From NCBI GenBank assembly GCA_043732185.1, contig JAYTHY010000046.1, positions 5,250 through 69,249 on the forward strand: 64,000 nt of DNA, given 5' to 3'. This DNA is from Fibrobacteria bacterium. GTDB taxonomy: Bacteria > Fibrobacterota > Fibrobacteria > UBA11236. A program made the translations under genes and the position numbers. Within the stretch, counting starts at the first letter, position 1, and every line of letters starts with the position of its first letter. Positions 487-18,934 of the stretch are shown piece by piece. The notes under the pieces are model-generated. The model did no database searches. It was not told where the DNA came from and worked only from the letters and a program-made list of their open reading frames with translations.

Positions 487-492
487 CACCCC

Positions 493-3967: not shown

Positions 3968-4935
3968 GCATCCGTACATTCGTTCAATGTTTGGCTTTGG
4001 TTATCTTGACTGGCGCGAGCCGAACTTTCGCCCATGCCGGGCATACTGAAGCGCCCCAGGAGCAAACCGGCGCAGGAGGACCGGTCTTCCTATCGGAGGA
4101 GGCGGAAAAAAATCTAGACATCCAGACGGCGGAAGCCACCGTGCAAGCCATCGAGAAAACCATAAAAGCCTCCGGAACCGCGCAGGCCATCCCAGGCACA
4201 CGTGAAAACGTGGCCAGCAAGATTGCCGGAAGAGTGGTTGAACTCAAGGCCACGCTGGGCCAGTACAAGAAGCAAGGAGAACCCCTGCTCATTTTGGAAG
4301 CGCGTCAGCTTTCGGAAACCCCTATTCGCGTTTCCGTCCTCGCGCCCCGCAGCGGAAAAGTGGTCAAACTCAATGTGATCAAAGGCGATGCTGTGGAAAC
4401 GGGGACCTCCCTGCTTGAGATCGCCGATTATTCGGAGGTTTATGCGGTTGCGAAGGTGTACGAATCCCAGGTTGGTAGGATCACTAAAGGCATGCCCGCA
4501 CGAATCTATTCTCCTGCGCTTAAGAATAAGGAATTGGACAGCAAGGTCGATGTGATCGGATCCGAAGTGAACCCTCAGAGCCGCACCGTGGACGTATGGC
4601 TTCGGGTCAAAAACCAGAATGAACAATTGAAAATAAACATGACCGTGAGCGTCTTTTTCCTGGCCGATAAGGAAGATGAATCCATAGTCGTGCCGAAGTC
4701 GGCTTTACTAGGTTCGGGAGGCGAGCGCTTCGTTTTCGTCGTGGAAGGAAACAAGTACACCCGTACCTCCGTTGTTACGGGTATCGAGAATGACAAGTGG
4801 ATCGAGATTGTTGAAGGTCTCACGCCGGGGGATTCGGTTGTGACGCAAGGGAATTATCAATTGCAATTCGCCAAAACCAAACCGGCAACGGGTACCCCGG
4901 CAGAAGCTGGAAAACCCGGTTCCAAGGCGAAATGA
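3961..4935 (+). CDS. RND efflux periplasmic adaptor (membrane fusion protein, CzcB/CusB-like)
   Basis: Signal sequence MVSIRTFVQCLALVILTGA plus beta-barrel/lipoyl-like MFP motifs. ATGGTAA overlap with the upstream stop. Confidence 0.8.
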   Translation: MVSIRTFVQCLALVILTGASRTFAHAGHTEAPQEQTGAGGPVFLSEEAEKNLDIQTAEATVQAIEKTIKASGTAQAIPGTRENVASKIAGRVVELKATLGQYKKQGEPLLILEARQLSETPIRVSVLAPRSGKVVKLNVIKGDAVETGTSLLEIADYSEVYAVAKVYESQVGRITKGMPARIYSPALKNKELDSKVDVIGSEVNPQSRTVDVWLRVKNQNEQLKINMTVSVFFLADKEDESIVVPKSALLGSGGERFVFVVEGNKYTRTSVVTGIENDKWIEIVEGLTPGDSVVTQGNYQLQFAKTKPATGTPAEAGKPGSKAK

Positions 4936-4941
4936 GCCAAT

Positions 4942-7900
4942 ATGCTTAACTTAATCATCCGCTTTTCTCTCCGTAATCGGCTCCTTATTACGGCCCTGGC
5001 CGTCTTACTCACCGTGTACGGGACCTATGTGCTGCGCAAGCTCCCCGTGGATGTCTTTCCGGATCTTAATCGTCCCACCGTTACCATTTTCACGGAAGCC
5101 TCTGGTCTTTCCCCGGAAGAAGTGGAAGCCTTAGTCGCCTATCCCATCGAGACCGCCATGAACGGCGCCACAGGAGTCGAACGGGTTCGATCGGTCTCAA
5201 CGCCCGGTCTGGGCCTGGTGTTCGTGGAGTTCGATTGGTCCACGGATATTTATATCGACAGGCAGATCGTGGCCGAAAAACTTCAGAGCATCCGGGAAAA
5301 TCTCCCGCCTTCCGTGAATCCGGTCATGGGACCCATCACGTCCATCATGGGCGAAATCATGCTTATCAGCGTCAGCGGCGATTCTACTTCACCGATGGAT
5401 TTGCGAACCTTGTCGGACTGGACCATAAAACCCAGGCTACTCAGCATTCCCGGGGTGGCCCAAGTTATCCCCATTGGAGGCGATCTTAAACAATACCATA
5501 TCCTCGTCTCGCCGGATAAGTTACGCCAGAACGGCGTGACCCTGCGTCAGGTCGAGGAAGCGGTCAAGAAGTCCAATACCAATTCTACAGGTGGATTCCT
5601 GGTGCAGGGATATACGGAAGCCGTGGTACGCAACCTCGGACGCGTAGAGTCCCTGGATGATTTGCGGAATACTGTCGTCGCGTTCCGGGACGGGCAATCC
5701 ATCACCTTGGATCAGGTAGCGGATATCCGTTTCGGATCTCCGCAAAAAAGAGGATCCGGGGGATCGAATGCCAGGCCCGCCGTTATCCTGAGCGTTAAAA
5801 AGCAACCGGGCGCAAGCACCACCGACCTCACGGAAAAAGTCGATGCCGCCCTGAAGGATTTGCAAAAGACCCTTCCAAAGGGCGTTGAAATCAATGCCAA
5901 CCTATTCCGCCAATCCAATTTCATAACTACCGCCATCGGCAATGTCGAAGACGCCTTGCGTGACGGGAGCATCCTGGTTGTCATCGTCCTCTTTTTCTTT
6001 CTCCTGAATTTCCGGACCACCTTCATCACCTTAACGGCCATTCCGTTGTCCATTCTGATTACCGTACTGGTCTTCAAGATCTACGGCATTTCCATCAATA
6101 CCATGACCCTCGGGGGTTTGGCCGTCGCCATCGGAGAGTTGGTTGATGACGCCATCGTGGGAGTCGAGAACGTATTCCGCAGATTAAAGGAGAACAGCGC
6201 GAAACCCAATCCGGAGCCGGTCCTGGACGTCATATACATCGCATCCTCGGAGGTCAGGAATTCCATCGTCTTCGCGACCTTGATCGTAGTGCTTGTCTTT
6301 ATCCCATTGTTTTCATTGGGTGGGATAGAAGGACGCATCTTTGCCCCGCTGGGCATCTCCTATATCCTTTCGATCCTGGCGTCGCTGCTGGTTTCCCTCA
6401 CGGTCACTCCCGCATTATGCGCCTATCTGCTTCCCAATGCGAAGTTTTTGCATAAGGAAGCGGATGGGCCGTTGGTCCGCTTCCTCAAGAACTGGAATCG
6501 GAAATATCTTTTGGAACCAACCATCAGCCGACCTTGGTTGTCCCTATCCATAGCCCTGGTACTTTTGGCAGCGGCCGTCGCGTCCTTTCCATTTCTGGGA
6601 AAAGAATTCCTACCGCCATTCAACGAAGGCACGGCGACAATCAATGTCCTTTTGCCGCCGGGAACCTCGCTTCCCGAATCGGATCGCATCGGCATATTGG
6701 CTGAAAAATTAATCCTCAAAGTGCCGGAAGTCCTGTCGACTGGGAGGCGGACCGGCCGGGCTGAAGAGGATGATCATGCCGAAGGGGTCCACTCAGCGGA
6801 AATCGACGTGGATTTGAAGCCCAGTAAAAGAAAGCGGGAAGTCATACTCGGGGATATCCGCAAGAATCTCGATTTGATACCGGGTATCGCCATCAATATC
6901 GGTCAGCCCATCTCCCATCGCATCGATCATCTGTTGTCCGGTATACGCGCCCAAGTGGCCATCAAGCTCTATGGCGACGACCTGGGAACATTACGGCAAA
7001 AGGCGGATGAAATCGAAGGACAATTGAAAACCGTTCGTGGCGTAGTGGATTTATCCGTCGAAAAGCAGGTTCTCATTCCTCAGATTTCTGTAAAGCTAAA
7101 TAGGGACGAACTGAAGCGCTATGGCCTACAACCAGGTGACATAACGGAACTCATCCAAACAGCATTGGGCGGTGAAAAAGTTTCCGAGGTCCTGGAAGAC
7201 CAGAAGCGTTTTTCCATGGTCGTCCTGCTGGACAAGGATAGTCGCGCCGACATGGAAAAAATAGGCTCGATCCTGGTGGAGCTTCCGAGCGGGGATCAAA
7301 TCCCTCTGAATATGGTCGCGACAATCCTGCCTGCCGTGGGACCCAACCAGATTTTGCGTGAAAACGTCCGGCGGCGCATCGTTATCCAATGCAATACTAG
7401 CGGCCGCGATCTGGGCTCCGTCGTTAATGACATCCAGAAGGTGATAGGCGAAAAAGTCCAATTGCCGACTGGATATTTCATCGAGTACGGCGGACAATTC
7501 GAAAGTCAAAGGGAGGCCAGCCGAATGATTGGGCTTCTCAGTATTTTCTCGCTATTGGGGATGTTCCTCGTACTATTCATGCACTTCCGTTCCGTCAAGC
7601 TTGTCATGTTCATCATGCTCAACATCCCCTTCTCCATGATCGGCGCCGTACTCGCCCTTTGGCTTACGACCCGGACCTTCTCCATCGGTTCCCTGGTGGG
7701 ATTCGTCACCCTTTGCGGCATCTCCGCCCGCAATGGCATCATGATGGTCTCGCATTACCTCCATCTGCTTCGGGAGGAAGGAGAAACATGGACACCGCAT
7801 ATGATCACGCGGGGCGCTTTGGAGCGCTTGGTTCCCGTCCTCATGACGGCCTCAACCGCGGCCTTGGCTCTTATCCCTCTCATCCTGTCGCCTAGCGAAC

Positions 7901-8079
7901 CTGGTAAGGAAATCCTGTATCCGGTCGCCGTCGTCATCTTTGGCGGACTGATCAGTTCAACCTTGATGAACATTGCTTTGGTCCCAACCATGTTTTGGAA
8001 TTTTGGTCAAAAGGCCGTGGCTCACCTTCTGGAAAAAGATAAGGCTGAAGCCTCAGAAAGGAAGGGCAACACGAATTAA
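4942..8079 (+). CDS. heavy-metal efflux RND permease (CzcA/CusA family, HME-RND)
   Basis: 1045 aa. N-terminus MLNLIIRFSLRNRLLITALAVLLTVYGTYVLRKLPVDVFPDLNRPTV is typical of CusA/CzcA, with 12-TM RND architecture. Confidence 0.9.
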   Translation: MLNLIIRFSLRNRLLITALAVLLTVYGTYVLRKLPVDVFPDLNRPTVTIFTEASGLSPEEVEALVAYPIETAMNGATGVERVRSVSTPGLGLVFVEFDWSTDIYIDRQIVAEKLQSIRENLPPSVNPVMGPITSIMGEIMLISVSGDSTSPMDLRTLSDWTIKPRLLSIPGVAQVIPIGGDLKQYHILVSPDKLRQNGVTLRQVEEAVKKSNTNSTGGFLVQGYTEAVVRNLGRVESLDDLRNTVVAFRDGQSITLDQVADIRFGSPQKRGSGGSNARPAVILSVKKQPGASTTDLTEKVDAALKDLQKTLPKGVEINANLFRQSNFITTAIGNVEDALRDGSILVVIVLFFFLLNFRTTFITLTAIPLSILITVLVFKIYGISINTMTLGGLAVAIGELVDDAIVGVENVFRRLKENSAKPNPEPVLDVIYIASSEVRNSIVFATLIVVLVFIPLFSLGGIEGRIFAPLGISYILSILASLLVSLTVTPALCAYLLPNAKFLHKEADGPLVRFLKNWNRKYLLEPTISRPWLSLSIALVLLAAAVASFPFLGKEFLPPFNEGTATINVLLPPGTSLPESDRIGILAEKLILKVPEVLSTGRRTGRAEEDDHAEGVHSAEIDVDLKPSKRKREVILGDIRKNLDLIPGIAINIGQPISHRIDHLLSGIRAQVAIKLYGDDLGTLRQKADEIEGQLKTVRGVVDLSVEKQVLIPQISVKLNRDELKRYGLQPGDITELIQTALGGEKVSEVLEDQKRFSMVVLLDKDSRADMEKIGSILVELPSGDQIPLNMVATILPAVGPNQILRENVRRRIVIQCNTSGRDLGSVVNDIQKVIGEKVQLPTGYFIEYGGQFESQREASRMIGLLSIFSLLGMFLVLFMHFRSVKLVMFIMLNIPFSMIGAVLALWLTTRTFSIGSLVGFVTLCGISARNGIMMVSHYLHLLREEGETWTPHMITRGALERLVPVLMTASTAALALIPLILSPSEPGKEILYPVAVVIFGGLISSTLMNIALVPTMFWNFGQKAVAHLLEKDKAEASERKGNTN

Positions 8080-8159
8080 CCCTTGGCACCAACCTTGCTC
8101 TCTGTCTCAATGTCTCTCTGTACTGTGTATTTTCAACCATTCATCACTAGGAGTAAATT

Positions 8160-8630
8160 ATGAAGAACACGAAATTGACACTGCTGTCCACCTTCTTTGC
8201 AGCCACCCTATGTACCGTTCCCACCATTCAGGCGAACGAGAAGGGCGAGGCCGCACACGATTCGGCTATGTCTAGATCACCGGAAATGCATATCAATCCC
8301 ACCGAAGGATTGAAAAATATGCATGCCCAGCTGGATAGCGCGGACAAGTACTTGGCAGCAGGCAAACTTGATCGTATGCATGTTTTCGCCGAAGCCATCG
8401 AGGGAGCCGTCGTCGGAATCGACAAAGACACATCCCTAGATGCCATGAAGCAGAAACGTGTTTCCGGTTGCGTGAAAAATATCGCCAAGCTGGCGAAGGA
8501 GTTGGACGAAAACGGCGATGCCAACAAATTGGAGGAGACCCGTAAAACGATTAAAAAGCTAAAGGCCCAGGCAGAATTGTTGGAAAAACAGTTCAAGAGT
8601 AAAGCCGGCAAGGAAGATCACCATAAATAA
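8160..8630 (+). CDS. secreted periplasmic protein, Lys/Glu-rich helical, scattered His/Met (possible metal-binding)
   Basis: Signal peptide MKNTKLTLLSTFFAATLCTVPTIQA. AGGAG RBS. C-terminal EDHHK. Confidence 0.5.
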   Translation: MKNTKLTLLSTFFAATLCTVPTIQANEKGEAAHDSAMSRSPEMHINPTEGLKNMHAQLDSADKYLAAGKLDRMHVFAEAIEGAVVGIDKDTSLDAMKQKRVSGCVKNIAKLAKELDENGDANKLEETRKTIKKLKAQAELLEKQFKSKAGKEDHHK

Positions 8631-8766
8631 CGGAATGCGATATCACCGTAATATCATTGGGTGATTCCGAAGCTGCCGGCGATTTGAAAACCGGCGGTTT
8701 CTCCTATTTTTCATAGTAGTTCTAGAATTGAAATCAAATACACAAACGAAGAAAGCGAGGTCGAAA

Positions 8767-9831
8767 ATGGCCTTTCAAGTCCTGATTCGGGCTTTAGGTG
8801 CCATAACTCTATTGGCACTTTCTGGATGCTCAATAAAAATGAATGACGGTGCGATGGGAAATCCCTCCACGGTTGCCATACCAATAATTACCTCCGATGC
8901 GCTCTATGTCGTTAATGGAGGGAGCAATTCTTTGACGGTCATAAATACCTCTACCAACGAAGTGGCAGGAACCATTGTGCTCAAGGATGTTACCTTTCCT
9001 CACCACCTTTCTTTGAGCCCGGATCGGGGGTCCCTGTCCTTGGCCGTGCCAGGCATGGACCTCAGCGCGGGACACGATGGGGGCGGAATGGCCATGAAAA
9101 TGAAAGGCGCAATACTCAACCTCGACGCCGCCACAGGACAAACCAAGGTCAGCCGCTTGCTGGACGCACCAAATCATAATGGTGCATTTTCCCCGGATGG
9201 CAAGGAGGTGTGGACGTCACAGATGATCATGTCAGGGAATATCCTGGTATTGGATGCTGTTACGCTCACGACCATCAAGATTATCGACGTTGGTGATATG
9301 CCCGCCGAAGTCACCTTTTCCAGCGACGGCAAGTATGCCTTCGTTGCCAATGGGATGTCCAACAACGTGACGATAATCGACGTCGCCATGAAAACGGTAC
9401 TCAAGACGCTTTCGGTGGGCATGAATCCCGTCGGCGCTTGGCCAGGGCCGAACGGCATGATGTATGTCGATAATGAAAAGAGCAAAACCTTGACTGTCAT
9501 CGATGGAGCGAAGCTCGATGCCGTCAAAACCATCAATCTAGGATTCATGCCAGGCATGGCGGCCATCGCACCCAATGGAGAGCTGTGGGTGACGAATGCG
9601 GAAGACGGTAAGGTTGTCTTTTTTTCGGCCACGGATGGTTCGAAGTCAGGTGAACTGGCCACGGGAGCGAATGCCCATGGCATAGCCTTCGCCGGTGATG
9701 GGAAAACCGCTTATGTTTCCAACCAAGGGGCCGGAACCGTTAGCGTCATAGATATTCTTTCAAAAGCTTTGGTCAAAAATATTCCGGTCGGGGCGGAACC
9801 AAATGGAATGGCTTTTAGGAAAATGCCTTAG
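8767..9831 (+). CDS. YVTN-family beta-propeller repeat lipoprotein
   Basis: Lipobox LALSGC. Six or more repeats of the YVxNxxSNxhxVID type (YVVNGGSNSLTVINTST, YAFVANGMSNNVTIIDV, TAYVSNQGAGTVSVIDI). ATG 8767 has a GAGG RBS; the ORF track's start at 8728 is also possible. Confidence 0.75.
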   Translation: MAFQVLIRALGAITLLALSGCSIKMNDGAMGNPSTVAIPIITSDALYVVNGGSNSLTVINTSTNEVAGTIVLKDVTFPHHLSLSPDRGSLSLAVPGMDLSAGHDGGGMAMKMKGAILNLDAATGQTKVSRLLDAPNHNGAFSPDGKEVWTSQMIMSGNILVLDAVTLTTIKIIDVGDMPAEVTFSSDGKYAFVANGMSNNVTIIDVAMKTVLKTLSVGMNPVGAWPGPNGMMYVDNEKSKTLTVIDGAKLDAVKTINLGFMPGMAAIAPNGELWVTNAEDGKVVFFSATDGSKSGELATGANAHGIAFAGDGKTAYVSNQGAGTVSVIDILSKALVKNIPVGAEPNGMAFRKMP

Positions 9832-9880
9832 CATCAACGATGAAATTATTGAAACCAAATACCGAGGAGACGAAATAATC

Positions 9881-11047
9881 ATGGAATTAAAAAACCTTGG
9901 ATTTCTGGCTGCTATCCTCCTTTTCGTTACGGGTTGTCTGAAGCAGGAAAGTTCCCCAACCGGACCAGCTGCCAATGCCCCATTCCAATCCATTTATAAG
10001 CCCATCAAAAGGGAATACTGGATCACCACGGAAACGACATTCAAATGGGATATGGTGCCGGGGGGTGAAGCCATGATGACCAATGATGTCATTACCCCCG
10101 AACGACGCTACCTCTATAAAACCATCCGGTATGTGCAATCCGACAGTCAGTGGAATACGCTCTCCCTACCCGAATGGCAGCAGCTCTCCGGTCCCATCAT
10201 CCGGGCCACCGTAGGGGATTCCGTGCTGGTCCACTTCAAGAATGGCTCGAACACGGGAATGCCCCTGAGCATACATCCACATAATCTTTTCTATAACGAA
10301 GCCAATGAGGGTGTATGGAGGAAGGACCGGCCCAAAGATTGGCCTGAGCAAGGGACGGCGGGAGGATCCGTCCAACCCGGAGGCGAGTTCCTTTATCACT
10401 GGAAAGCCGAAGCGAAGTCCGTTGGGGTTGGCCCCTATCATAGCCACTCCTTCCACCCCGCGGAAGAACTCTCACTGGGTCTTATCGGAACGATCATTGT
10501 TGATGAGCCCCCCGATCATCCGGAATACGTGAAGTTCGATACCACAATCGCATTGATCTTTAAGACTTATCTGGCGAGGGTTTCCCCAATGGATACCACC
10601 GTGAAGGATTCCACAAAAAAGGATACCTGCACGCCGCCCCTTATACCCTGGAATGGCGGCTGCCATCCGAGAGAACACGTGCCCAAAGATCAATGGCCGG
10701 AAAATATCGTGGACTCATTGGCCCATGGGGGTGGACCGGAAGTGCATACAATCAACGGGATTGCTTATGCCAATCTTAAAGGGCTGAGTTTCAAAAAAGG
10801 CCAAAATATCAGGTTCGTCGTGGTGGCGATGGACGATGAAGGAACACAAAACCACACTATCCATTTCCACGGAGAAATGCTCCAGGAAATGACGCGGACA
10901 AATCTATACAAGGACGTGTTCGATCTTCCTTCTGCCGTGGCAATCGATTTGATAATGAAGGCCGAAAATGTGGGTAAGTGGATGCTTCATTGCCACGTCG
11001 AGCATCACGCTTCGGAAATGATGGCAACTTACGAGATCAGGGAATAA
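9881..11047 (+). CDS. multicopper-oxidase-like cupredoxin lipoprotein (probably two-domain type), paralog A
   Basis: Lipobox FVTGC. All four MCO copper-ligand motifs are present: HPHN, YHSHSFH, HTIHFHGE, HCHVEHHASEMM. GAGGAG RBS before the ATG at 9881. Confidence 0.65.
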   Translation: MELKNLGFLAAILLFVTGCLKQESSPTGPAANAPFQSIYKPIKREYWITTETTFKWDMVPGGEAMMTNDVITPERRYLYKTIRYVQSDSQWNTLSLPEWQQLSGPIIRATVGDSVLVHFKNGSNTGMPLSIHPHNLFYNEANEGVWRKDRPKDWPEQGTAGGSVQPGGEFLYHWKAEAKSVGVGPYHSHSFHPAEELSLGLIGTIIVDEPPDHPEYVKFDTTIALIFKTYLARVSPMDTTVKDSTKKDTCTPPLIPWNGGCHPREHVPKDQWPENIVDSLAHGGGPEVHTINGIAYANLKGLSFKKGQNIRFVVVAMDDEGTQNHTIHFHGEMLQEMTRTNLYKDVFDLPSAVAIDLIMKAENVGKWMLHCHVEHHASEMMATYEIRE

Positions 11048-11089
11048 GAATTTAGAAATCAACGCGTATTCAACGAGAAGGTAAATCTA

Positions 11090-11413
11090 ATGCAACTCAG
11101 AAAAATCGAAGCCTACGTCCGTAGAGAGCGGCTTTCGTTTATTCTCATGGGCCTGGACAAACTCCCCAAGTTCCCGGGAATTACGGTCCTTGACTGCCAG
11201 GGTTTCGGCAACGAGCATCAGCCAAAGACCCACGCCCGGATTGTAGAATACCTCCTTGAACCCTTTCGCCATGCCAAACTTGAAATATTCTGCCCCGAAG
11301 ATGAAATGGGTCGAATTATTGGAGTTGTTAAGGAACAATCCGGGACCAAAGAAGGAAGCCATGTTAGGATTTTCGTATCTGAATTGGGAGAGTTCGAGGA
11401 AGTTAAGAGATGA
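11090..11413 (+). CDS. PII-like (GlnB/CutA-fold) small protein, PII-NG-like
   Basis: 107 aa. KIEAYVRRERLSFILMGLDKLPKFPGITVLDCQGFGNEH is collinear with the GlnB N-terminus (KIEAIIKPFKLDDVREAL..GITGMTVTEVKGFGRQKGH). The T-loop is shortened and lacks Tyr51. Confidence 0.6.
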   Translation: MQLRKIEAYVRRERLSFILMGLDKLPKFPGITVLDCQGFGNEHQPKTHARIVEYLLEPFRHAKLEIFCPEDEMGRIIGVVKEQSGTKEGSHVRIFVSELGEFEEVKR

Positions 11414-11444
11414 CAACCTTGTTGGATAATATTTTGAACCCTAT

Positions 11445-12437
11445 TTGGCGGGGCTTCAAATAGCCCGCCTTCTATTTTTCATCCTCTTTATCTTGAATAC
11501 TATGTACGCATTCGCTGGACGCTGGGTCGTTCACGATATAAGAAACATTCCCGGCAAAGAGGTCAACGTAGTTGTCGGAGACCGGAACGGAAATAAATGG
11601 ATTGGAACAAATAAAGGCCTTGCGGAGTTGACCTTTTCCGGGGAGTGGAAGCTGTTCAACAGGAAAAACACCAATGGAAATCTGAATTCGGATTCAATCA
11701 CTTGTTTAGCCGTGGATTCCAAGAATAATATTTGGATTGGAACCAGGGGAGGAGGGGTTTCCGTCTTTGGCTATGGGTTATGGAAGAATTTCACTTCGGA
11801 AGGTACCAGCGGGTCACTTCCTGACAATTGGATTACGGCAATCGATATCGGTAGTGACGGTGATGTTTGGGTCGGCACTTACAACGGATTCGCGAAACTT
11901 CGTGGGATGAACTGGACTAGTTTTTCCGGTGATAAGATCTCCGGACACCTTCCCAGTAAAATAGTGACTGCCCTGGCGGTGGAGGGTGAGTCCAATGTGT
12001 GGATCGGAACCGCCGGCGGGCTTGTCCATTTTTACCGGTCGGAGTGGGAGATTTACAAAAAAGAAAATACCTCAGGTGGATTGCCTCACAATAGCATCAC
12101 CTCAATTTCAATATCGCCTTCGGGAACAAAATGGATTGGAACATATCGTGGAGTTGGAAGGCTTTCTGGTTCTGCGTGGAATTCTTTTCCGAATGTTAAA
12201 ATGCCAGATGAATTACGTGAGGCGCATATTTACCAGGTTAATGCGGACAAAAAAGAGGATGGTTGGGTTTCATTCAAGGGTGGAGCGGCGCATTGGAATG
12301 GAAATTCCTGGAAAATATTTACCAAAGAAAATACCGGAGGCGGGATTTCCACAGGTTATGTCTATGCCACCTATCCCGAGGAGAATGGCCAAATATGGTT
12401 TGGAACTAGGGAAGGGTTGACCCAGTATATTCCGTAG
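11445..12437 (+). CDS. secreted stand-alone 7-bladed beta-propeller (two-component-regulator propeller / Reg_prop-type repeats)
   Basis: TTG start. Signal peptide ending AFA. Seven repeats of the pattern N.WIGT..G.. (NKWIGTNKGLAEL, NIWIGTRGGGVSVF, DVWVGTYNGFAKL, NVWIGTAGGLVHF, TKWIGTYRGVGRL, QIWFGTREGLTQY). No kinase or receiver domains. Confidence 0.65.
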   Translation: MAGLQIARLLFFILFILNTMYAFAGRWVVHDIRNIPGKEVNVVVGDRNGNKWIGTNKGLAELTFSGEWKLFNRKNTNGNLNSDSITCLAVDSKNNIWIGTRGGGVSVFGYGLWKNFTSEGTSGSLPDNWITAIDIGSDGDVWVGTYNGFAKLRGMNWTSFSGDKISGHLPSKIVTALAVEGESNVWIGTAGGLVHFYRSEWEIYKKENTSGGLPHNSITSISISPSGTKWIGTYRGVGRLSGSAWNSFPNVKMPDELREAHIYQVNADKKEDGWVSFKGGAAHWNGNSWKIFTKENTGGGISTGYVYATYPEENGQIWFGTREGLTQYIP

Positions 12438-12513
12438 ACACGTTTTTTTTAAAAAAGGTGTTCAGAATGAAACCGTAGATTTTCAAAGGCACAAACGCCC
12501 AAGGAGAGTGCAA

Positions 12514-13686
12514 GTGAAACCAAACCGAATCATACGTCTTTGCCTCGCAGCCCCGTTATTTTTCCTTTCCGGCTGCCTGACCAAGGAAAGTTCAACCACC
12601 GGCCCGGATGCCTCACCCGCATTCACATCCAGCTATTCTCCCGTTAAAAGGGAGTACTGGGTCAGCACTGAAACCAAGTTCAAATGGGACATGGTGCCGG
12701 ATGGGGAGGCCATGATGACAAATGACATCATATATCCGGAAAGACGTTACTTGTATAAAACCATCCGTTACGTCCAAACGGATAGCCAGTGGAATGTACT
12801 CCCGCAACCCTCATGGCAGCAGCTTTCCGGACCTATCATACGCGCGACGGTAGGCGACTCGGTTATCGTTCACTTCAAGAATGGCGCCAATACCGGAATG
12901 CCGTTGAGCATGCATCCTCATAACCTGGTCTATGATGAAGCCAATGAAGGCGTCTGGAGAAAGGATCGACCCAAGGAATGGCCTGAAGGAGGCACCGCGG
13001 GTGGCTCAGTGAAGCCGGGTGATTCCTTTACTTATAAATGGAAGGCCGAGGAGAAGTCGGTCGGCGTAGGTCCCTACCACAGTCATTCCTTCCATCCCGC
13101 GGAAGAGATCGCCTTCGGGCTAATCGGAACAATCATCGTGGACCAGCCGCCGGATCACCCCGACTATGTGAAGTTCGACAGCACCATCGCGCTGGTTTTC
13201 AAATCCTACTTGGCAATGGTCGCTCCCATGGATTCAAGCATGAAGGACACGACCAAGAAAGACACCTGCACGCCGCCCCTCATTCCATGGAATGGAGGAT
13301 GCCATCCCAAAGAGCATGTACCCCAAGATCAATGGCCCGAAAACATCATCGACTCAATGGCACATGGAGGCGGTCCCGAGGTACATACCATAAATGGAAT
13401 CGCGTATGCCAATCTCAAAGGTCTGGTTTTTAAAAAAGGACAGAACATCCGATTCGTCGTGTTCGCAATGGATGATGAAGGAACACAGAATCACACGGGT
13501 CATTTCCACGGCGAAATGCTTCGGGAAATGTCCCGGAAGAACCTCGTTAAAGACGTATTCGATCTTCCCTCCGCAGTGGCGATGGACCTGATGATGAATG
13601 CGGAAAATGTGGGGAAGTGGATGCTGCACTGCCACGTAGAACATCATGCGTCCGAAATGATGGCCACCTATGAAATCTCAGAGTAA
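12514..13686 (+). CDS. multicopper-oxidase-like cupredoxin lipoprotein, paralog B
   Basis: Roughly 80% aa identity to 9881..11047 (by eye), with the same four Cu-ligand motifs (HPHN, YHSHSFH, HTGHFHGE, HCHVEHHASEMM). Lipobox FLSGC. GTG 12514 has AAGGAG at -7; the ORF track's GTG 12508 is an alternative. Confidence 0.65.
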   Translation: MKPNRIIRLCLAAPLFFLSGCLTKESSTTGPDASPAFTSSYSPVKREYWVSTETKFKWDMVPDGEAMMTNDIIYPERRYLYKTIRYVQTDSQWNVLPQPSWQQLSGPIIRATVGDSVIVHFKNGANTGMPLSMHPHNLVYDEANEGVWRKDRPKEWPEGGTAGGSVKPGDSFTYKWKAEEKSVGVGPYHSHSFHPAEEIAFGLIGTIIVDQPPDHPDYVKFDSTIALVFKSYLAMVAPMDSSMKDTTKKDTCTPPLIPWNGGCHPKEHVPQDQWPENIIDSMAHGGGPEVHTINGIAYANLKGLVFKKGQNIRFVVFAMDDEGTQNHTGHFHGEMLREMSRKNLVKDVFDLPSAVAMDLMMNAENVGKWMLHCHVEHHASEMMATYEISE

Positions 13687-13695
13687 GGAATCGAA

Positions 13696-14286
13696 ATGAA
13701 AAAGACAATCCCTTTCATAATTGTCGCCGGAATAGGCGTATTCGGATGCAGTCAAAAATCAGAACGCGAGAAAGAATCCACTTCTATGTCGGCCCAGGAA
13801 TCAACCAGGCCCAAACCGGCCTTTGCTGCCCCGGACTCATTCAAAGTGGGGCTCGGAAAGGTTTTTGAAGGCTATACCAATATCGAATCCGCCTTGGCGC
13901 ATGATAACTTCGCCCAGGCCAAAGATGCATTCCAATCCATGCATACCATATTGCACATTCTCCAAACCGACGGTCTGGATAGTTCCGGCAAAGTTTACTG
14001 GGATTCTCTGGATGGGGCCATTATGGGAGTTCTTCATCCCATGGCCGCTGCGGAAAACATCTCGGGAATGCGCGATCACTTCATCGATTTCACGCCGCTG
14101 ATTCTGGATGCGGTTGAGAAATTCGGAGCGTCATCCGAAATCCAAGCCTACCTATTCCATTGCCCTATGGCCAGGAATAAAAAAGGAGCAGATTGGCTTC
14201 AACGCGATACCGTGCTGTTAAACCCCTACTATGGGAATTCGATGCCCACCTGCGGGGCGCTTGTGAGAGAGGTAAAATTCCACTAG
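13696..14286 (+). CDS. lipoprotein with HCPM motif (DUF3347-like / heavy-metal-binding-motif-like)
   Basis: Lipobox VFGCS. C-terminal YLFHCPMARNKKGADWLQ resembles the YxCPMHP heavy-metal-binding motif. AAGGAA RBS. Confidence 0.5.
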   Translation: MKKTIPFIIVAGIGVFGCSQKSEREKESTSMSAQESTRPKPAFAAPDSFKVGLGKVFEGYTNIESALAHDNFAQAKDAFQSMHTILHILQTDGLDSSGKVYWDSLDGAIMGVLHPMAAAENISGMRDHFIDFTPLILDAVEKFGASSEIQAYLFHCPMARNKKGADWLQRDTVLLNPYYGNSMPTCGALVREVKFH

Positions 14287-14367
14287 CGCCCCTATTTCCA
14301 GATTTGACTAGGTATCATCTTTTAGGGTCTCTCCACCGAATTTCATTCACACGAAAGGTGTACAAAA

Positions 14368-14892
14368 ATGAATTACTCGAAAATAGTATCCAAAATATCC
14401 CTGCTCCTATTCTCTTTCATTTTGCGAAGAGCTGCATTCATCCGTATCCTCAAGAGTCTCATATTCACCGGAATTGCATTAACCAGCGCATCTCTGATAT
14501 CGTGCGCTCAATCATCACCAGGAAATCGCGACTCCGGTGAAACGAATTCTTCGACTCTGAATAATTCAGGAGAAATCCAAGGCGTTCTTCATGAGTTTCA
14601 GCTAAGGCTCGATTCAGTAAGGTCGGCGATCGACAGCAATGACCTAAACAAGATTCATGGACAGGCCGAAAACCTCATCCACTGTAAAAAAGCGATCGGG
14701 GGTCTGTATTCCTCGAAAAATGCCTGGGAACGAAATAAAGTCAAGAGCTATTTACACGACATCGATCTTAGCCTTTACTGGCTGCATCAATATGCCGATT
14801 CAAGGGATAGAGCAGCTTCAAATAAAATATTTAATTCGCTCAAATTGGAATTTGAAGCCTTACAGAATTTCTTAGCTCCAAGAATTAAATGA
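14368..14892 (+). CDS. hypothetical helical lipoprotein
   Basis: Signal/lipobox LISCAQ. No recognisable domain. Confidence 0.45.
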   Translation: MNYSKIVSKISLLLFSFILRRAAFIRILKSLIFTGIALTSASLISCAQSSPGNRDSGETNSSTLNNSGEIQGVLHEFQLRLDSVRSAIDSNDLNKIHGQAENLIHCKKAIGGLYSSKNAWERNKVKSYLHDIDLSLYWLHQYADSRDRAASNKIFNSLKLEFEALQNFLAPRIK

Positions 14893-14924
14893 ATTAGGTA
14901 TCACAAAGGGAGGACTTTTACAGC

Positions 14925-15371
14925 GTGAGACAACCTTTTCCAGGAGTGAATGTTTTGGAACCAAAGAAGCCGCGCTTGACTCCCCGCCCAATTCGACATG
15001 TCCCTGGCCCTCCCATGGAAAAGACGCAAGCAGAAGGGCAAAGCATTTTCAAATACCGCGACTATCGCGAATTCATCCGCGACTTCTACACCTCAAGAAA
15101 AGCGAAGGATCCGAAATTTTCTTTTCGCAAGATGGCAATACTCCTAAGCCTCCCCAGTCATGGCCATATTATATTCCTAATAGACGGCGCAAGAAATGCG
15201 GGCACTAAATCTTTCGCGAAAATGATTCGCGGCTTTGGTTTCTCAGGGAAAGAAATCCCTTATTTTGAAAACCTGGTAATGTTTAACCAGGCAACCTCAA
15301 ACCAGGAAAAAATGTTCTATAAAGGGCGTCTTACGGAGCTATTAGGAAAAAAGCCTTTGCGAACAAATTAA
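14925..15371 (+). CDS. TIGR02147-like (Fibrobacter paralogous family) N-terminal fragment, 148 aa, ends in an in-frame TAA
   Basis: YRDYREFIRDFYTSRKAKDPKFSFRKMA...IPYFENLVMFNQA resembles, from memory, the conserved N-terminal half of the TIGR02147 family. About half the usual family length. Confidence 0.45.
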   Translation: MRQPFPGVNVLEPKKPRLTPRPIRHVPGPPMEKTQAEGQSIFKYRDYREFIRDFYTSRKAKDPKFSFRKMAILLSLPSHGHIIFLIDGARNAGTKSFAKMIRGFGFSGKEIPYFENLVMFNQATSNQEKMFYKGRLTELLGKKPLRTN

Positions 15372-16685
15372 GTGGTAGGGTCGCACGTGCCCCCTTTCTG
15401 CTCCCGAAAGGAATTTGATTGCTATTATTGCGTCATGCCAGACCTATTCCAAAGTTTGATTTCACGATACAAGTCCGATCCCGAATCCGTATACCATACG
15501 TGGTTTCTTAATAGCGGAGAAAGACTCAAGGCTTTCCGTTCCGTTCGGCTTGGTGTCGCGCAAGTTATCTCGGACATCCAGACTGGGAAATTCGGAAATG
15601 ATTTCAAAGGCTCTTCGCTGGAGTTCGTTCTCAACTGCATTACCGAACAGAAGCAGGTTTTTGAAGGGGCCGCGCATCCATTTTATTGGAAACCGAAGTT
15701 GCGTATTCCCGATATCTATGAGAATCAACCCAACAAAATTGCGTTCGGACAATTTCTCGAAAAGTGCCTGAACGCGACCAAGGAGGAACAAATACTGAAG
15801 GAGATCGCGCACTTAGACGATCTCTCCATCAAGGGCCTGGGCCCGGCGGTCGCCAGTATCCTGTATTTTCTTCATCCAACCCTCATTCCCCCGTGTAACA
15901 CCGCCATCGTCAACGGTTTCAATACTCTATTCGGAGAAAAAAGGAAACTGGGTTCCTGGCAGGAATATTTGAAGATGCGGGAAACCATCCTAGCCAGGAA
16001 CAGCGAATGGAAATCGGAACTGTCCAACGATCTAGGCGCAATCGGTGGATTCCTGTTCGATGTAGGCGTTAAAAAAATCGTTCCCGATGAAATCCAAAAT
16101 CTCACCGCCGAAGAAAAAGAAAAAATCGATTCCCTGGTTGGAAAAAGACGGAAGGACATTCGTACGGAAAGAGAGGAAGAAGGTTTGCATTCCGAAATGC
16201 AGTACCATCTTCTCAAGATCGGCAAAGCGCTGGGATATGATGTAATTAGCGCCGTAAATGACCGCTCCCGTCAGCATCAGGGGAATCTTTTCTCCTTTGT
16301 ATCACTTCAACATTTTCCCGTTTTGCCCGTGGATGAAGATGTCTTATCCACAATCAAGCTTGTCGATGTGCTCTGGTTTGAGAAAGGAACTTCGAAAATC
16401 GTGTGCGGGTTCGAGGTAGAAAAGAGCACGTCTATATACTCCGGAATCTTACGATTGAGTGATTTATTTTTCTCCCTTCCGGACCACCAAACCAAACTTT
16501 TCCTGGTGGTTCCCAATCAAAGGGAAACCGAAGTCATAATGCAACTGGGGCGACCGTCGATTAAAATCCATGCCACCAGCATTCAATACATCCTTTTCTC
16601 AGAACTCCGGGATAATTGCGACGCCTTATGCCGGTTCGGTGAAAATCATGCGATCATGAGTAAAATTGCCAAAAAAATCACATGA
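15372..16685 (+). CDS. HhH-motif + PD-(D/E)xK restriction-endonuclease-like protein (start uncertain: GTG 15372 directly after the TAA, or ATG 15435)
   Basis: Central LSIKGLGPAVASILYFLHPTLIPPCN is helix-hairpin-helix-like. The C-terminus (EMQYHLLKIGKALGYDV ... VDVLWFEKG ... GFEVEKS) matches the E / hD / ExK order of Mrr-like nuclease cores. Same frame as 14925..15371. Confidence 0.5.
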   Translation: MVGSHVPPFCSRKEFDCYYCVMPDLFQSLISRYKSDPESVYHTWFLNSGERLKAFRSVRLGVAQVISDIQTGKFGNDFKGSSLEFVLNCITEQKQVFEGAAHPFYWKPKLRIPDIYENQPNKIAFGQFLEKCLNATKEEQILKEIAHLDDLSIKGLGPAVASILYFLHPTLIPPCNTAIVNGFNTLFGEKRKLGSWQEYLKMRETILARNSEWKSELSNDLGAIGGFLFDVGVKKIVPDEIQNLTAEEKEKIDSLVGKRRKDIRTEREEEGLHSEMQYHLLKIGKALGYDVISAVNDRSRQHQGNLFSFVSLQHFPVLPVDEDVLSTIKLVDVLWFEKGTSKIVCGFEVEKSTSIYSGILRLSDLFFSLPDHQTKLFLVVPNQRETEVIMQLGRPSIKIHATSIQYILFSELRDNCDALCRFGENHAIMSKIAKKIT

Positions 16686-16806
16686 CCTCGCTTTACGCTG
16701 AACCAATCCCGTGTGACACAAATACTCATAGCCGCTTGAGCACTTGAACCGAAGCTCCCCCTTCCAAGCATTCAATTTTTTCATGGAGACTGAAAAATAA
16801 TCCCGG

Positions 16807-16825
16807 GGTTGTCTTATAGACAACC
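16807..16825. promoter_or_regulatory. perfect 7-5-7 palindrome GGTTGTC-TTATA-GACAACC upstream of 16920 gene (candidate operator)
   Basis: Seen directly in the sequence. About 95 nt upstream of the first ATG of the 582-aa gene. Confidence 0.3.
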
Positions 16826-16919
16826 AATTTCCTGCCAACTCCGCCCTTCTTTCCGGAACAGCCATAGATTCAACTCTTGAGATCCTGCCATCCGAGGGTT
16901 TCTCCTTCGTTAACGTCTC

Positions 16920-18668
16920 ATGGCTTGCTACGAACAAGACTTGATAATGTCAAAATCCCAACTGGGAGCAAGAAAGAACAGAATGCCGGCAGCCGAAAAA
17001 ACTTTTATTGGAATGTCCCTTTTTCTCCCATCTCGGATTGACTTAGGATTTCTCTATCTGGTCCTACTTTCGACTCCAAACCCGACCTGGTCGCACGGCG
17101 CGGATGCTGCCGCTGCGGCCCATCCCGCCCATATCGGTTCAGGAGTGGATATGATGGAACCGGATGATTCATTGAAAATCGCTGTGGACATGTTCGGATA
17201 CCTCGCAAACTCCTGGACTTCCACGCTTGGAGTAGGGACGCCTCTTGGAGCGGGAGGCAAAGGCCCGCAGTATTACAATCAATGGCTTTACAAGAACGGC
17301 CCTTTTGATCGACCACATCTCGAAAAACCGGACCTTCGGCCGGGATATGAAGACTTTTCCTATGTGCCCACGTGGCAGCCGGATCAGTTGGAACTGCGGA
17401 CCCAATACCGTTTTCTTCCCCGTATGTGGGGATCGATTTCCCTCGGATATGATGCCGACCCGATCAATACCGAATCTGAAGACGCCCTCCACGCTCCGAC
17501 CCTCGAAGAGCTGCTTCTGAAGTGGGCGCCGGAAGGCACACCCGGATTGGCGTTCAGCTTCGGTCAGCAAACCATTGCCGGATCTTATAGTCCGATATTT
17601 GATCATTTCACATTGATTCACTCCGAGTTCGCCGGGCTTACGGCCACTTACGAACGCGAATCTTCCAGCGGCGTAAAAATGGAAGGGACGGCGGCCGTGG
17701 GCCAAGAAGGCGTTGGTCGATTGAAAAAGCCTGTTCAATCAAATTCAAACGATGTCGGCGATCCCGGAACCGCAATGTATACAGATGGCATCCGCTCACG
17801 CAATCATTTCCAGGCCAACATTCGGCTCACCTCTCCCGGAGGATTCTACCTGGGCTTCCTGGGCGAATACCAGAGCTTACCTGAAGACAGCACGGTCATG
17901 GTCCCTCTGGCCGCCACCTTATTCAGATACCATTGGCGTAGGAGCCGGGGTTGGCAGGCCGGCGGTGAATGCGGATATGTCGGTAAGATCTGGGAACATC
18001 ATTTTACCGTAAGTCATGGCGAAGGCGATGTGAACATGGCATGGAGCGGTCCTGACGCCATTTCCCTGCCCAGCAGGGTTCCTCCGGATGTGGAATGGAC
18101 CAGAGAGGGTAGCGCGTTATCCCAGGCTATCTATTGGGGCGGATTCCATGACGGGCGCTGGCGCATCGATGCCGGTGCTTGGACGCAGTGGCGCGACCCC
18201 GCAAAGGATGCGGGGTACTCCTACGCCACCGGAAAAACCGGACCGGACAGCATTCTGCAACTGAAAGCGCAGGACTTCCGGGCCGCGAAGCTCGCATTGG
18301 AACCCTCTTTCAAGTGGAGAGGATTCATGACGCTCGGGCTTCGTTACGATTACTTCCTTTATTTGGATCCATCAGCCCATGCCAATACCATAGAACCCCT
18401 TACCGATGCAGCGCTACGACCTGTTGAAGCCGTTTTACCAGATGGATCAACGGCCCAAATGCAGGGACCCTCACAATGGGAGCGCGAAGCTGCCAACGCG
18501 CAAATCATTTCTCCCTTTGCGCAGATGGATCTGGGCGAAGACTTCCATGCCCGTGCAGGCTGGTCCGGAGCTTGGTATAGTAAAGGTGTGAACCGCCAGG
18601 GTTCCATTGGGGAATTCCATGCCAATGCCACTTTGGCGGCTTGGTTCACTTACCGCTTTGACCAATAA
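16920..18668 (+). CDS. hypothetical W/Y/G-rich exported protein, possible outer-membrane beta-barrel
   Basis: 582 aa. Internal candidate signal peptide MSLFLPSRIDLGFLYLVLLSTPNPTWS. Aromatic-rich amphipathic segments throughout. No enzymatic motif. Confidence 0.45.
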   Translation: MACYEQDLIMSKSQLGARKNRMPAAEKTFIGMSLFLPSRIDLGFLYLVLLSTPNPTWSHGADAAAAAHPAHIGSGVDMMEPDDSLKIAVDMFGYLANSWTSTLGVGTPLGAGGKGPQYYNQWLYKNGPFDRPHLEKPDLRPGYEDFSYVPTWQPDQLELRTQYRFLPRMWGSISLGYDADPINTESEDALHAPTLEELLLKWAPEGTPGLAFSFGQQTIAGSYSPIFDHFTLIHSEFAGLTATYERESSSGVKMEGTAAVGQEGVGRLKKPVQSNSNDVGDPGTAMYTDGIRSRNHFQANIRLTSPGGFYLGFLGEYQSLPEDSTVMVPLAATLFRYHWRRSRGWQAGGECGYVGKIWEHHFTVSHGEGDVNMAWSGPDAISLPSRVPPDVEWTREGSALSQAIYWGGFHDGRWRIDAGAWTQWRDPAKDAGYSYATGKTGPDSILQLKAQDFRAAKLALEPSFKWRGFMTLGLRYDYFLYLDPSAHANTIEPLTDAALRPVEAVLPDGSTAQMQGPSQWEREAANAQIISPFAQMDLGEDFHARAGWSGAWYSKGVNRQGSIGEFHANATLAAWFTYRFDQ

Positions 18669-18810
18669 GAACCGCAACACTTCTTCGCTTCGGGCAGGTT
18701 AAATCCTTAGCGACAAAGCCATTCCAGTGGAGGGCAAGAACGGCCTTCTCAGGATCGAAAACGTTAAACCTAAAACCTGCTTAGAGTACCCGGCTAAACT
18801 AATGTTTCCT

Positions 18811-18864
18811 GGTGTCCACAAAGTGTCCACTTTTTGAGAGTAAGAGGGAGGATTTCGGAGGGTG
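18811..18864. repeat. 54-nt motif copy A: GTGTCCAC-AAA-GTGTCCAC-TTTTT-GAGAGTAAGAGGGAGGATTTCGGAGGGT, followed by hairpin 18861..18890
   Basis: About 80% identical to copy B at 19198..19250. Direct octamer repeat with 11-bp periodicity. A 9-bp-stem hairpin (GGTGAGGGA...TCCCTCACC) lies just downstream. Confidence 0.7.
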
Positions 18865-18934
18865 AGGGAAGCAAATGTGCCTCCCTCACCACCGGCCTAT
18901 CGCCAAATCCTTTCGAATTTCAGCGATTAAAAGT

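Follow-up and report, generated by a model that had tools for sequence, protein, structure and literature searches.

An enlarged, lineage-specific form of a probable Fibrobacteria copper-defence island with single-repeat ceruloplasmin-type oxidases and a YVTN propeller lipoprotein

The 64,000-nucleotide (nt) stretch of a Fibrobacteria bacterium genome considered here (assembly GCA_043732185.1, contig JAYTHY010000046.1, positions 5,250 to 69,249; referred to as the window, whose own numbering is used throughout) contains twelve genes in series on the + strand between 2136 and 14892. They encode a tripartite heavy metal efflux resistance-nodulation-division (HME-RND) pump that lies between two conserved proteins, u0 and g1, followed by membrane-anchored periplasmic proteins that include two multicopper oxidases (MCOs) and a YVTN beta-propeller. 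We propose, with a probability that we put at roughly 60%, that this island is a lineage-specific, enlarged form of a copper-defence island conserved in Fibrobacteria, which combines metal export with the oxidation and binding of copper in the periplasm. The part downstream of the pump (8160–14892, +) had been put forward in a preliminary description as a candidate undescribed module for handling copper or other metals in the periplasm. Proteins were assigned to families by Pfam and NCBIfam profile searches using curated cutoffs or gathering scores, and the twelve genes are as follows.

2136–2621, +, u0, small Cys/His protein with an N-terminal membrane anchor; homologs in the same position
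2723–3967, +, outer-membrane factor of the pump (TolC/OEP); NCBIfam TolC, NodT, and IhpA matches
3925–4935, +, periplasmic adaptor or membrane fusion protein (MFP) of CzcB/CusB type; TIGR01730 at 128 bits (cutoff 94.9)
4942–8079, +, HME-RND inner-membrane pump; TIGR00914 at 841 bits (cutoff 701)
8160–8630, +, g1, secreted helical His/Met-rich protein; no family match
8767–9831 (alternative start 8728), +, g2, YVTN propeller lipoprotein; TIGR02276, 126 bits against 27.85
9881–11047, +, g3 (MCO-A), multicopper oxidase lipoprotein; Cu-oxidase_3 and Cu-oxidase_2 above gathering scores
11090–11413, +, g4, PII-like cytoplasmic protein; P-II PF00543, 34.4 bits against 25
11445–12437, +, g5, secreted Reg_prop propeller; PF07494, 81.4 bits against 20.4, in three significant stretches
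12508–13686, +, g6 (MCO-B), multicopper oxidase lipoprotein; Cu-oxidase_3 and Cu-oxidase_2 above gathering scores
13696–14286, +, g7, DUF3347 lipoprotein with a CPM motif; PF11827, 41.5 bits against 25.5
14368–14892, +, g8, helical lipoprotein, apparently a divergent g1 paralog; no family match

The existence and strand of the genes are as the preliminary description gave them and every one of its domain assignments is borne out by the Pfam and NCBIfam matches, those for the MCOs, the PII-like protein, the propellers, and DUF3347 all lying above threshold, although the block that it counts as six genes in fact has eight. Its further claim, that all of them except the PII-like protein carry export signals, agrees with the translations, which we read directly, without a predictor, using the lipobox pattern [LVI][ASTVI][GAS]C at the end of the signal peptide. 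Lipoboxes are seen in g2 (LSGC), g3 (VTGC), g6 (LSGC), g7 (VFGC), and g8 (LISC), and signal peptides in g1 (..IQA/NE) and, given a TTG start at 11445, in g5 (..AFA/G), while g4 has neither. The start of MCO-A is ATG 9881 (MELKNLG...), matching its ortholog in one of the related loci described below (L011), and g2 probably starts at 8767. Genes within the eight-gene block are spaced by 9–136 nt, and a consensus scan of the block gives 14 terminator-like sites on the + strand compared with 17 expected by chance from shuffled sequence; with such short gaps and no excess of terminators, the block is compatible with one operon. A consensus promoter scan was at or below the shuffle expectation, and neither the promoter nor the terminator scan is informative on operon structure. 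Upstream of the pump, a terminator-like hairpin follows u0 at 2628–2648, and an Rfam scan of the window gave three tRNAs only, with no metal riboswitch or leader.

To define what is conserved, all window proteins were compared with 16 loci that contain close relatives of the MCOs, by means of tblastn tables, contig look-ups, and an MCO-profile scan of genome contigs; where loci must be told apart they are given by L numbers. The MCO relatives of at least 55% identity found in the profile scan are all from Fibrobacteria metagenome-assembled genomes (MAGs), and every locus of this clade with sufficient upstream sequence has an HME-RND pump. The order u0-OEP-MFP-RND-g1-MCO is found again in L003, L004/L017, L008, L010, L012, and L013, with adaptor homologs at 65–75% identity and a syntenic OEP gene in the related loci, and L005, which is truncated upstream, retains RND-g1-MCO-DUF3347. 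DUF3347 usually comes after this core, and a P1B ATPase with HMBD/YHS domains, which in L011 has a CPC motif, often flanks it on either side. The conserved Fibrobacteria core consists of u0, OEP, MFP, HME-RND, g1, a two-domain MCO (2dMCO) and/or the YVTN protein, and then DUF3347, and in the Fibrobacteria MAGs it is usually adjoined by a CopA-type ATPase.

The two small proteins that bracket the pump are part of this core. Homologs of u0 (30–68% identity) lie directly before the OEP gene in L003, L004, L006, L010, L012, L013, and L094 and have invariant G..CC..N, HC.G, and C.S motifs together with a C-terminal PRPQN..PP.YL.TL..LV sequence. Neither a Pfam nor an NCBIfam family matches u0, and hhalign finds no relation between u0 and g1; its C-terminal part is probably periplasmic because basic residues precede the N-terminal anchor. 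Homologs of g1 (34–53% identity) directly follow the RND gene in L003, L004, L005, L008, L010, L012, L013, and L094, and we take g1 to be a conserved pump accessory on the strength of these matches. A single-sequence AlphaFold2 (AF2) model of g1, which is of low overall confidence (predicted local distance difference test score, pLDDT, 65 overall and ~80 in helices), predicts helices at residues 47–66, 70–88, 95–118, and 121–146, between disordered N- and C-terminal tails that are rich in His and Met. The lipoprotein g8 aligns with the g1 family by hhalign (probability 89.6%, E 1.9e-6, 97 columns) and accordingly appears in the list as its likely divergent paralog. A DUF3347-like domain in g1 was considered and rejected (hhalign probability 1.6%), and neither g1 nor g8 has a detectable relation to DUF3347.

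The third small protein, g7, belongs to a family for which we found no description in the literature, the coverage of which was incomplete. The DUF3347 proteins have an invariant C-terminal CPMA..GA.WL..NP..G..M..CG in nine aligned sequences, which include homologs from Bacteroidota plasmids, and this CPM...CG motif is a candidate for the binding of Cu(I). The pump adaptor of L007 is a fusion protein that includes DUF3347 (HMBD-CusB-DUF3347), and because of this fusion g7 is expected to work with the pump. Another small protein, encoded in L011 at 6472–6915 (–) next to a CopA-type ATPase, is a secreted 147-residue polypeptide of extreme Met content (MxxM and MMxxM runs) that is probably a further periplasmic Cu(I) binder; it has no counterpart in the window.

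Compared with this core, the window is expanded: it has not one MCO but two, it has g8 in addition to g1, and the g4-g5 pair is inserted. MCO-A and MCO-B are 82% identical and each lineage has orthologs elsewhere. Those of MCO-A are found at 88–90% identity in L010 and L011, the latter having YVTN (83%), then an MCO (88% identical to MCO-A), then unrelated genes. In L014 an MCO that is 95% identical to MCO-B is followed by DUF3347 and then directly by the gene that comes after g8 in the window, so that g8 is dispensable or absent in a close relative. Elsewhere, Logan metagenome contigs match the window, and an NCBI contig encodes a protein (P0001) identical to MCO-B across 99% of the length. 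The preliminary description had regarded the genes of the block as one unit, with synteny to be expected in other genomes, and this holds for the core but not for the PII-like protein, the Reg_prop propeller, or g8. Beyond the species, synteny is limited to RND-g1-MCO(-DUF3347) with u0 and, separately, to the pairs YVTN-MCO and YVTN-DUF3347, and the eight-gene order was rejected as a conserved unit.

These comparisons bear directly on the possibility that the whole set of eight downstream genes, the PII-like and Reg_prop genes among them, has co-evolved as a single, undescribed periplasmic metal module. Such a module would fit with the common strand, the gaps of 9–136 nt free of terminator-like sites above chance, the embedding of the g4-g5 pair between two MCO genes, and the reported clustering of PII-NG proteins with czc pumps, as far as that is cited in PMC7726332. 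We nevertheless consider it improbable. The full eight-gene combination is confined to two near-identical contigs from the species of the window, L001 and L002, and L014 does without g8. The PII-like and Reg_prop genes, of which the former has no relative above 33% identity and the latter has its two closest examined relatives in non-metal surroundings, are missing from all other MCO and YVTN loci collected.

We regard both g4 and g5 as lineage-specific additions, with at most a putative part in metal handling, because they are orphans or have relatives in unrelated contexts and are absent from ~100 other loci. Among 1.84 billion cluster representatives, the sole match to g4 below 1e-10 is g4 itself and the next is at most 33% identical. 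When compared with the canonical marks of PII proteins (the B-loop TGxxGDGKIF, the C-terminal RxR for ATP/ADP, and the T-loop), its B-loop reads SGTKEGSHVRIF with no GDGK, the C-terminal RIRTGE (RxR) is missing, and the T-loop is divergent. It reaches 21 bits with the GlnB/GlnK equivalogs versus 181–202, and 14.9 bits with DUF3240 versus a cutoff of 21. By sequence, g4 would be an orphan protein of the PII superfamily that lacks canonical nucleotide-binding motifs; if functional here it would be a cytoplasmic regulator of a membrane transporter. No match to g4 was found in plasmids by tblastn and no relative in a metagenome scan, and a phmmer search of all open reading frames (ORFs) in the collected loci turned up canonical GlnB genes alone, all of them at unrelated loci. 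Clustering with czc pumps is reported for PII-NG proteins (Sant'Anna 2009, as cited in a passage of PMC7726332). A place for g4 in that group is at most putative; g4 has no close relatives, and no PII-like ORF was found in the other metal loci collected. Even its nearest relatives share no more than 45% identity with g5, and the two closest ones on long contigs are in non-metal contexts next to glycosyltransferase, RNase, and unrelated genes. Neither a PII-like nor a Reg_prop gene is present in any of 16 other Fibrobacteria MCO loci, 10 genome or plasmid YVTN loci, or 80 metagenome YVTN loci. The g4-g5 segment has a G+C content of 0.46 and a GC skew unlike that of the flanking MCO genes, which is compatible with an insertion.

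The type of the oxidases is a finding beyond the preliminary description, which had them only as "MCO-like". All copper motifs of multicopper oxidases (HxH, HxH, HxxHxH, and HCHxxxHxxxxM) are present, and the MCO-B ligands H136/H138, H191/H193, H329/H332/H334, H374-C375-H376, H380, and M384 are invariant in 17 aligned sequences. Both HxH motifs are in domain 1 and HxxHxH and HCHxxxH..M in domain 2, so that the type 1 (T1) copper ligands lie in domain 2 and the ligands of the trinuclear cluster are split over both domains. When MCO-B alone is searched against all PDB sequences, the best match is ceruloplasmin (2.8e-51), together with factors V and VIII, and the bacterial 2dMCO structures score far more weakly (Nitrosomonas europaea 3G5W at 1.7e-10, SLAC at ~1e-5). 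All three ceruloplasmin repeats can be aligned over their full length with positions 44–389 of the MCO profile (8e-60, 3e-44, and 2e-49). The ceruloplasmin pattern is also seen in the inter-domain linker and, at the N-terminus, in the signature (Y/W)xxxxxxxWDxxP, with WD(Y/M)xP shared. Because of these end-to-end repeat alignments, and because cluster ligands are retained in both domains, the window MCOs are best described, as judged from sequence, as free-standing single ceruloplasmin repeats (~370 residues) with all copper ligands intact. They differ from the six-domain architecture of ceruloplasmin-type proteins in being one unit, and by analogy they probably form homotrimers with three interface trinuclear clusters. 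A type B class of two-domain MCOs, with T1 in domain 2, is said to have been distinguished by Nakamura and Go. The window MCOs do not belong to the CueO/PcoA/CopA families, given 49 bits versus 479 for copper_res_A (TIGR01480) and 13.8 versus 525 for CueO (NF008205).

A wider family of ceruloplasmin-type 2dMCOs, at ~30% identity, was found at 545 genome loci, its carriers including Nitrosospira, Nitrosovibrio, Nitrosotalea, Nitrosopumilaceae, methanotrophs (Methylobacter), Porticoccaceae, Acidobacteriota, and 'Angelobacter'. These distant genes are rarely near pumps, with an RND gene in 1 of 57 long loci, so the link to the pump is specific to the Fibrobacteria MCO clade. A survey of ceruloplasmin-like proteins left out those of less than 800 residues and gave only remote six-domain bacterial relatives, at E = 2.5 (Vasin et al., 2013; PMC3600357). 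We found no description of a bacterial single-repeat ceruloplasmin-type 2dMCO in the literature, of which our coverage is incomplete. Two further features of these proteins may be mentioned. The Fibrobacteria clade has a conserved linker with a C-x(11-12)-C motif and His (DTCTPPLIPWNGGCHPKEH; residues ~250–285 of MCO-B) at the position of the ceruloplasmin inter-domain linker, and many MCO homologs (P0002, P0007, P0010, P0022, P0023, and P0025) have short His-rich C-terminal tails such as GHSGH and GHTGHYSGAH, which the two window copies do not.

The nature of the pump is less clear. It was originally labelled CzcCBA-type, but that label is not established, as both the DFG aspartate of transmembrane helix 4 (TM4) and the CusA methionine triad are missing. 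Its PDB search scores with CusA (2e-147) and ZneA (8e-142) are almost equal, which leaves the pump type ambiguous. The triad that defines the HME4 (CusA-type) class, which we take to be M573/M623/M672 in E. coli CusA, is replaced by N, S, and H in the phmmer alignment of the window pump to 3T51, and an acidic and His-rich stretch, RAEEDDHAEGVH, is present where CusA has M623. The TM4 motif is AIGELVDDAIVGVEN, which reads AIG-ELVDDA-IVGVEN and is without the first Asp of DFG. The pump consequently departs from the signature of the HME1/HME2 (Czc/Cnr/Ncc) divalent-cation pumps, DFG-DGA-VEN, in the form quoted in a passage of PMC3637150. A CusCBA-type label is equally not established by the sequence.

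This ambiguity raises the question of whether the island has to do with copper at all, since the oxidases might be ferroxidases, manganese oxidases, or laccases, acting for instance on iron or on the lignin-derived phenolics that plant-fibre-degrading Fibrobacteria encounter, and the pump might export a divalent cation such as Zn, Ni, or Co. The closest solved relatives of the oxidases are the ceruloplasmin ferroxidases, and one homolog from the JGI (Joint Genome Institute) is labelled 'manganese oxidase'; on the side of the pump, the lack of the CusA Met triad, with RAEEDDHAEGVH at the M623 site, the ZneA score near that of CusA, and the Czc-type label of the preliminary description would all agree with a divalent ion. 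On the other hand, the orthologous loci pair pump and MCO with P1B ATPases that have HMBD/YHS domains and the CPC motif, the usual marks of Cu(I)/Ag(I) pumps, and the YVTN loci are rich in DUF305, DUF326 (annotated as 'four-helix bundle copper-binding protein'), HMA, and 'copper-translocating P-type ATPase'. In addition, the aspartate of DFG by which HME1/2 divalent pumps are recognised (in the signature quoted in PMC3637150) is missing from TM4, and the distant 2dMCOs (~31% identity) are not beside pumps, which makes the association of pump and oxidase specific to this clade. We therefore favor copper and regard a function with iron, manganese, phenolics, or divalent export as unlikely.

The remaining core component is the YVTN propeller lipoprotein, g2, whose family is found at 50–70% identity across Fibrobacterota, Kapabacteria, Myxococcaceae, and Actinomycetota. 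In 77 independent homologs (35–69% identity) conservation is 100% for H79, H80, H103, H304, E181, N138, W149, W274, and Q320, and 97% for H137. The AF2 model (pLDDT 91.6) has seven four-stranded blades, TIGR02276 being matched in five stretches, and according to the predicted strand boundaries H79/H80, H137/N138, E181, W225, H304, and N346 open the innermost strand, or immediately precede it, in six of the seven blades. From this placement at the innermost-strand starts of successive blades, H79, H80, H137, E181, H304, and N346 are predicted to form a ring at the hub of the propeller. H103 lies in a flexible loop of low model confidence, residues 96–114 (PGMDLSAGHDGGGMAMKMKG), that is rich in His, Met, and Gly in all homologs (mean 52% of residues). 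The top PDB fold match of the model is 1L0Q, an archaeal YVTN propeller, the others being generic seven-bladed propellers, and the His set specific to the family is not seen in the alignments with 1L0Q, hydrazine synthase beta, or YncE. The scores of g2 are below the cutoffs of the named families YncE (NF052280; 52 bits versus 400), AztD (NF038015; 16 versus 400), and L-NosZ (NF052460; 85 versus 700), and we dismissed its matches to L-NosZ and hydrazine synthase, which are far below cutoff, as generic YVTN-propeller similarity.

The genomic contexts of the YVTN family connect it with metals. In the window and in L011 it adjoins an MCO, and in L094 it occupies the MCO slot, in the order CopA-DUF305-u0-OEP-MFP-RND-g1-YVTN-DUF3347. 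In Myxococcaceae, a CusCBA-like pump and a two-component system are followed by YVTN and then by DUF305 and a YHS/HMBD ATPase. All five of the regions examined among the six closest plasmid matches, on Bacteroidota plasmids of Fibrella, Spirosoma (two), Haliscomenobacter, and Adhaeribacter, are heavy-metal islands with RND pumps, Cu-ATPases, HMA, DUF3347, DUF305, 'four-helix bundle copper-binding protein', and MCO. DUF305, which we assume to be the CopM family, lies beside YVTN in L091, L094, L099, and L176. In an independent metagenome sample of loci of at least 8 kb, with 57 loci around distant MCOs taken as controls, a copper or heavy-metal marker is present within 10 kb in 26 of 41 YVTN loci compared with 3 of the 57 controls (Fisher p = 3e-10), and an RND gene alone in 15/41 compared with 1/57. 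Hence the YVTN protein, which the preliminary description listed as having no assigned role in metal homeostasis, is here tied to copper and heavy-metal islands across Fibrobacterota, Myxococcota, and Bacteroidota. We found no paper that links the YVTN/YncE family to copper, which is a weak sign of novelty as literature coverage was incomplete. A separate recurrence is that DUF2911 very often directly follows YVTN (examples are L095–L098 and the metagenome loci L103, L143–L147, L169, and L175), and together with the methyltransferase genes mentioned below this suggests a conserved sub-module in metal islands.

Based on these data, we tentatively put forward that the His-hub YVTN lipoproteins could be an unrecognised and widespread family of periplasmic copper-handling proteins that shuttle copper to the HME-RND pump, or that metallate or cooperate with the MCO. 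With the same reserve, and from the model, the copper site would be formed by His79, 80, 137, and 304 with Glu181, and would be capped by the loop that contains His103. The same residues can be looked at differently, however, as the catalytic His/Glu metal hub of an enzyme (a hydrolase, lactonase, or redox enzyme) that does not transfer metal and whose substrate would be a product of copper stress or another toxic element. Five conserved His, together with the conserved E147/E181/D235/E237 and N/Q residues, look less like a simple Met/Cys site for Cu(I) than like an active site. Among the propeller relatives of g2 are lactonases, cd1 nitrite reductase, NirF/NirN, and hydrazine synthase, and in the Spirosoma plasmids and L094 a type-11 methyltransferase is encoded by the second gene after YVTN, beyond DUF2911 or DUF3347. 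Yet no known enzyme family is reached at cutoff by g2, the lactonase families being weak, variable loops of His, Met, and Gly such as it has are typically found in segments that capture metal, and the neighbours of the family are overwhelmingly genes for metal transport and binding, for which reasons we think a catalytic role quite unlikely.

Taken together, the domains and the synteny of the core support the proposal of the preliminary description that a periplasmic cluster for handling copper or other metals is tied to the HME-RND pump, and we can now suggest a hypothetical mechanism for it. Copper in the periplasm would be bound by the proteins rich in His, Met, and Cys, namely g1/g8, the CPM...CG motif of DUF3347, and the hub and loop of the YVTN protein, and these would hand it on to the adaptor and the pump, which would export it through the outer membrane. 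At the same time, trimers of the lipoprotein MCOs would convert Cu(I) into Cu(II), the less toxic form, in the manner of CueO and PcoA. In this scheme the YVTN protein would most likely be a metal-binding partner in the periplasm that either serves the pump as chaperone or sink or metallates the Sec-exported MCO.

It should be noted that several points weigh against a copper-defence island of this kind. The ion transported by the pump is uncertain, as neither the CusA Met triad nor the Czc DFG aspartate is there, and copper as the substrate is deduced from neighbours (CopA-type ATPases, MCO, DUF305, DUF326, and HMA). The parts of the window that were searched, which did not include every ORF, contain no CopA gene and no metal regulator. 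That the block is a single operon is a surmise from the short gaps and the lack of terminator-like sites. Conversely, g4-g5 are placed between the MCO genes with gaps of 31–70 nt, a spacing that leaves room for co-transcription and a functional link of these apparent additions. As to the YVTN protein, a propeller site of five His and carboxylates could be the active site of an enzyme and not a transfer site, and 15 of the 41 long YVTN loci are without a metal marker, at least of the limited set that was queried.

The island is real and well delimited and, as a defence against copper or other metals, it belongs to a known type of efflux with oxidation and is not a categorically new module. Periplasmic copper defence has been worked out chiefly in Proteobacteria with the Cus, CueO, and Pco/Cop systems, and the interest of the island is that another phylum builds the arms of export and oxidation from different parts. 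E. coli CusCFBA with CueO, and PcoABCD/CopABCD, also have an HME-RND pump, a periplasmic MCO, and small metal binders, and the loci orthologous to the window adjoin CopA-type ATPases. CueO is exported by the twin-arginine translocation (Tat) pathway. The window oxidases are two-domain lipoproteins exported by the Sec pathway, unlike CueO and PcoA, which are three-domain and Tat-exported, and in place of homologs of CusF, PcoB, PcoC, and PcoD, of which the window has none, there are u0, g1/g8, DUF3347, and YVTN. The Synechocystis CopBAC system with CopM (DUF305) likewise combines an HME-RND pump that is not of the classical CusA type with secreted helical accessory proteins that bind copper, although no DUF305 gene is present in this window; to our knowledge that system has neither an MCO nor a propeller. 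The HME5 class, as far as it is cited in PMC7060636, includes a copper RND pump. The association of PII-NG or GlnB/K with czcCBA resembles that of g4 in that a small cytoplasmic protein of PII fold is found in a heavy-metal RND cluster, but g4 is between MCO genes and not at the head of the pump operon, and its association is not conserved.

As far as we found, the novelty lies in the single-repeat oxidase of ceruloplasmin type and in the His-hub YVTN family, both of which are apparently undescribed and are accessible to experiment. A single ceruloplasmin repeat has long been proposed as the type of ancestor from which six-domain ceruloplasmin, hephaestin, and factors V/VIII arose. Within this group of six-domain proteins, the window MCO aligns with each two-domain repeat of ceruloplasmin, but it is a single repeat and a bacterial lipoprotein in a metal-efflux cluster, whereas ceruloplasmin has three fused repeats. 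With Streptomyces SLAC (type B), N. europaea 3G5W, and mgLAC 2ZWN it has in common two cupredoxin domains and T1 in domain 2, although in sequence it is far closer to ceruloplasmin than to SLAC or 3G5W. A single-repeat oxidase that can be expressed and crystallised would allow a test of the ancestor model. For the YVTN family, we know of no precedent of a metal-transferring propeller other than AztD. This is a periplasmic beta-propeller zinc metallochaperone encoded beside a metal transporter (PMC6689063). Like g2, it combines a periplasmic or cell-surface propeller and conserved putative metal-binding residues with a metal-transporter neighbourhood, but it has eight blades, binds zinc, serves an ATP-binding cassette importer, and its ligand set is unrelated to that of g2. 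If the tentative role of the YVTN protein is correct, it would represent a second and mechanistically distinct class of propeller metallochaperone after AztD (zinc), or else a new copper enzyme. In three phyla or more, this highly conserved family of unassigned function is found together with copper-resistance genes, both chromosomal and plasmid-borne. A role for it would sharpen the annotation of metal islands, mobile islands among them, and might bring to light a new form of periplasmic copper handling.

Downstream of the block, two more genes are on the + strand. The first, d2 (15372–16685), encodes a cytoplasmic protein of 437 residues with a Pfam NmeDI_C match and a weak PADLOC match to a type II restriction enzyme (1.8e-4). 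Its homologs (45–62% identity) are 0.1–4 kb from YVTN in L091–93 (Myxococcaceae), L124, L132, L166, L174, L176, and L179, and occur in 6 of the 41 metagenome YVTN loci and in none of the 57 controls (p = 0.004), and d2 may be a component of the island, perhaps a regulator, instead of a restriction enzyme. The second, d3 (16920–18668), encodes a 582-residue protein with a His-rich N-terminus and no family match. A homolog (39% identity) is directly downstream of the MCO in L015 (~990–2700), and we can only speculate that d3 is a further envelope component with a PcoB-like role. A tRNA gene (19330–19402, –) is ~660 nt past d3, and members of the Fibrobacter-specific paralog family TIGR02147 are encoded just downstream of the cluster. 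In a G+C profile of positions 1–20000, the cluster region (~2000–17000) has a G+C content of 0.44–0.53 compared with 0.55–0.58 in the upstream flank, a difference that is compatible with an acquired island.

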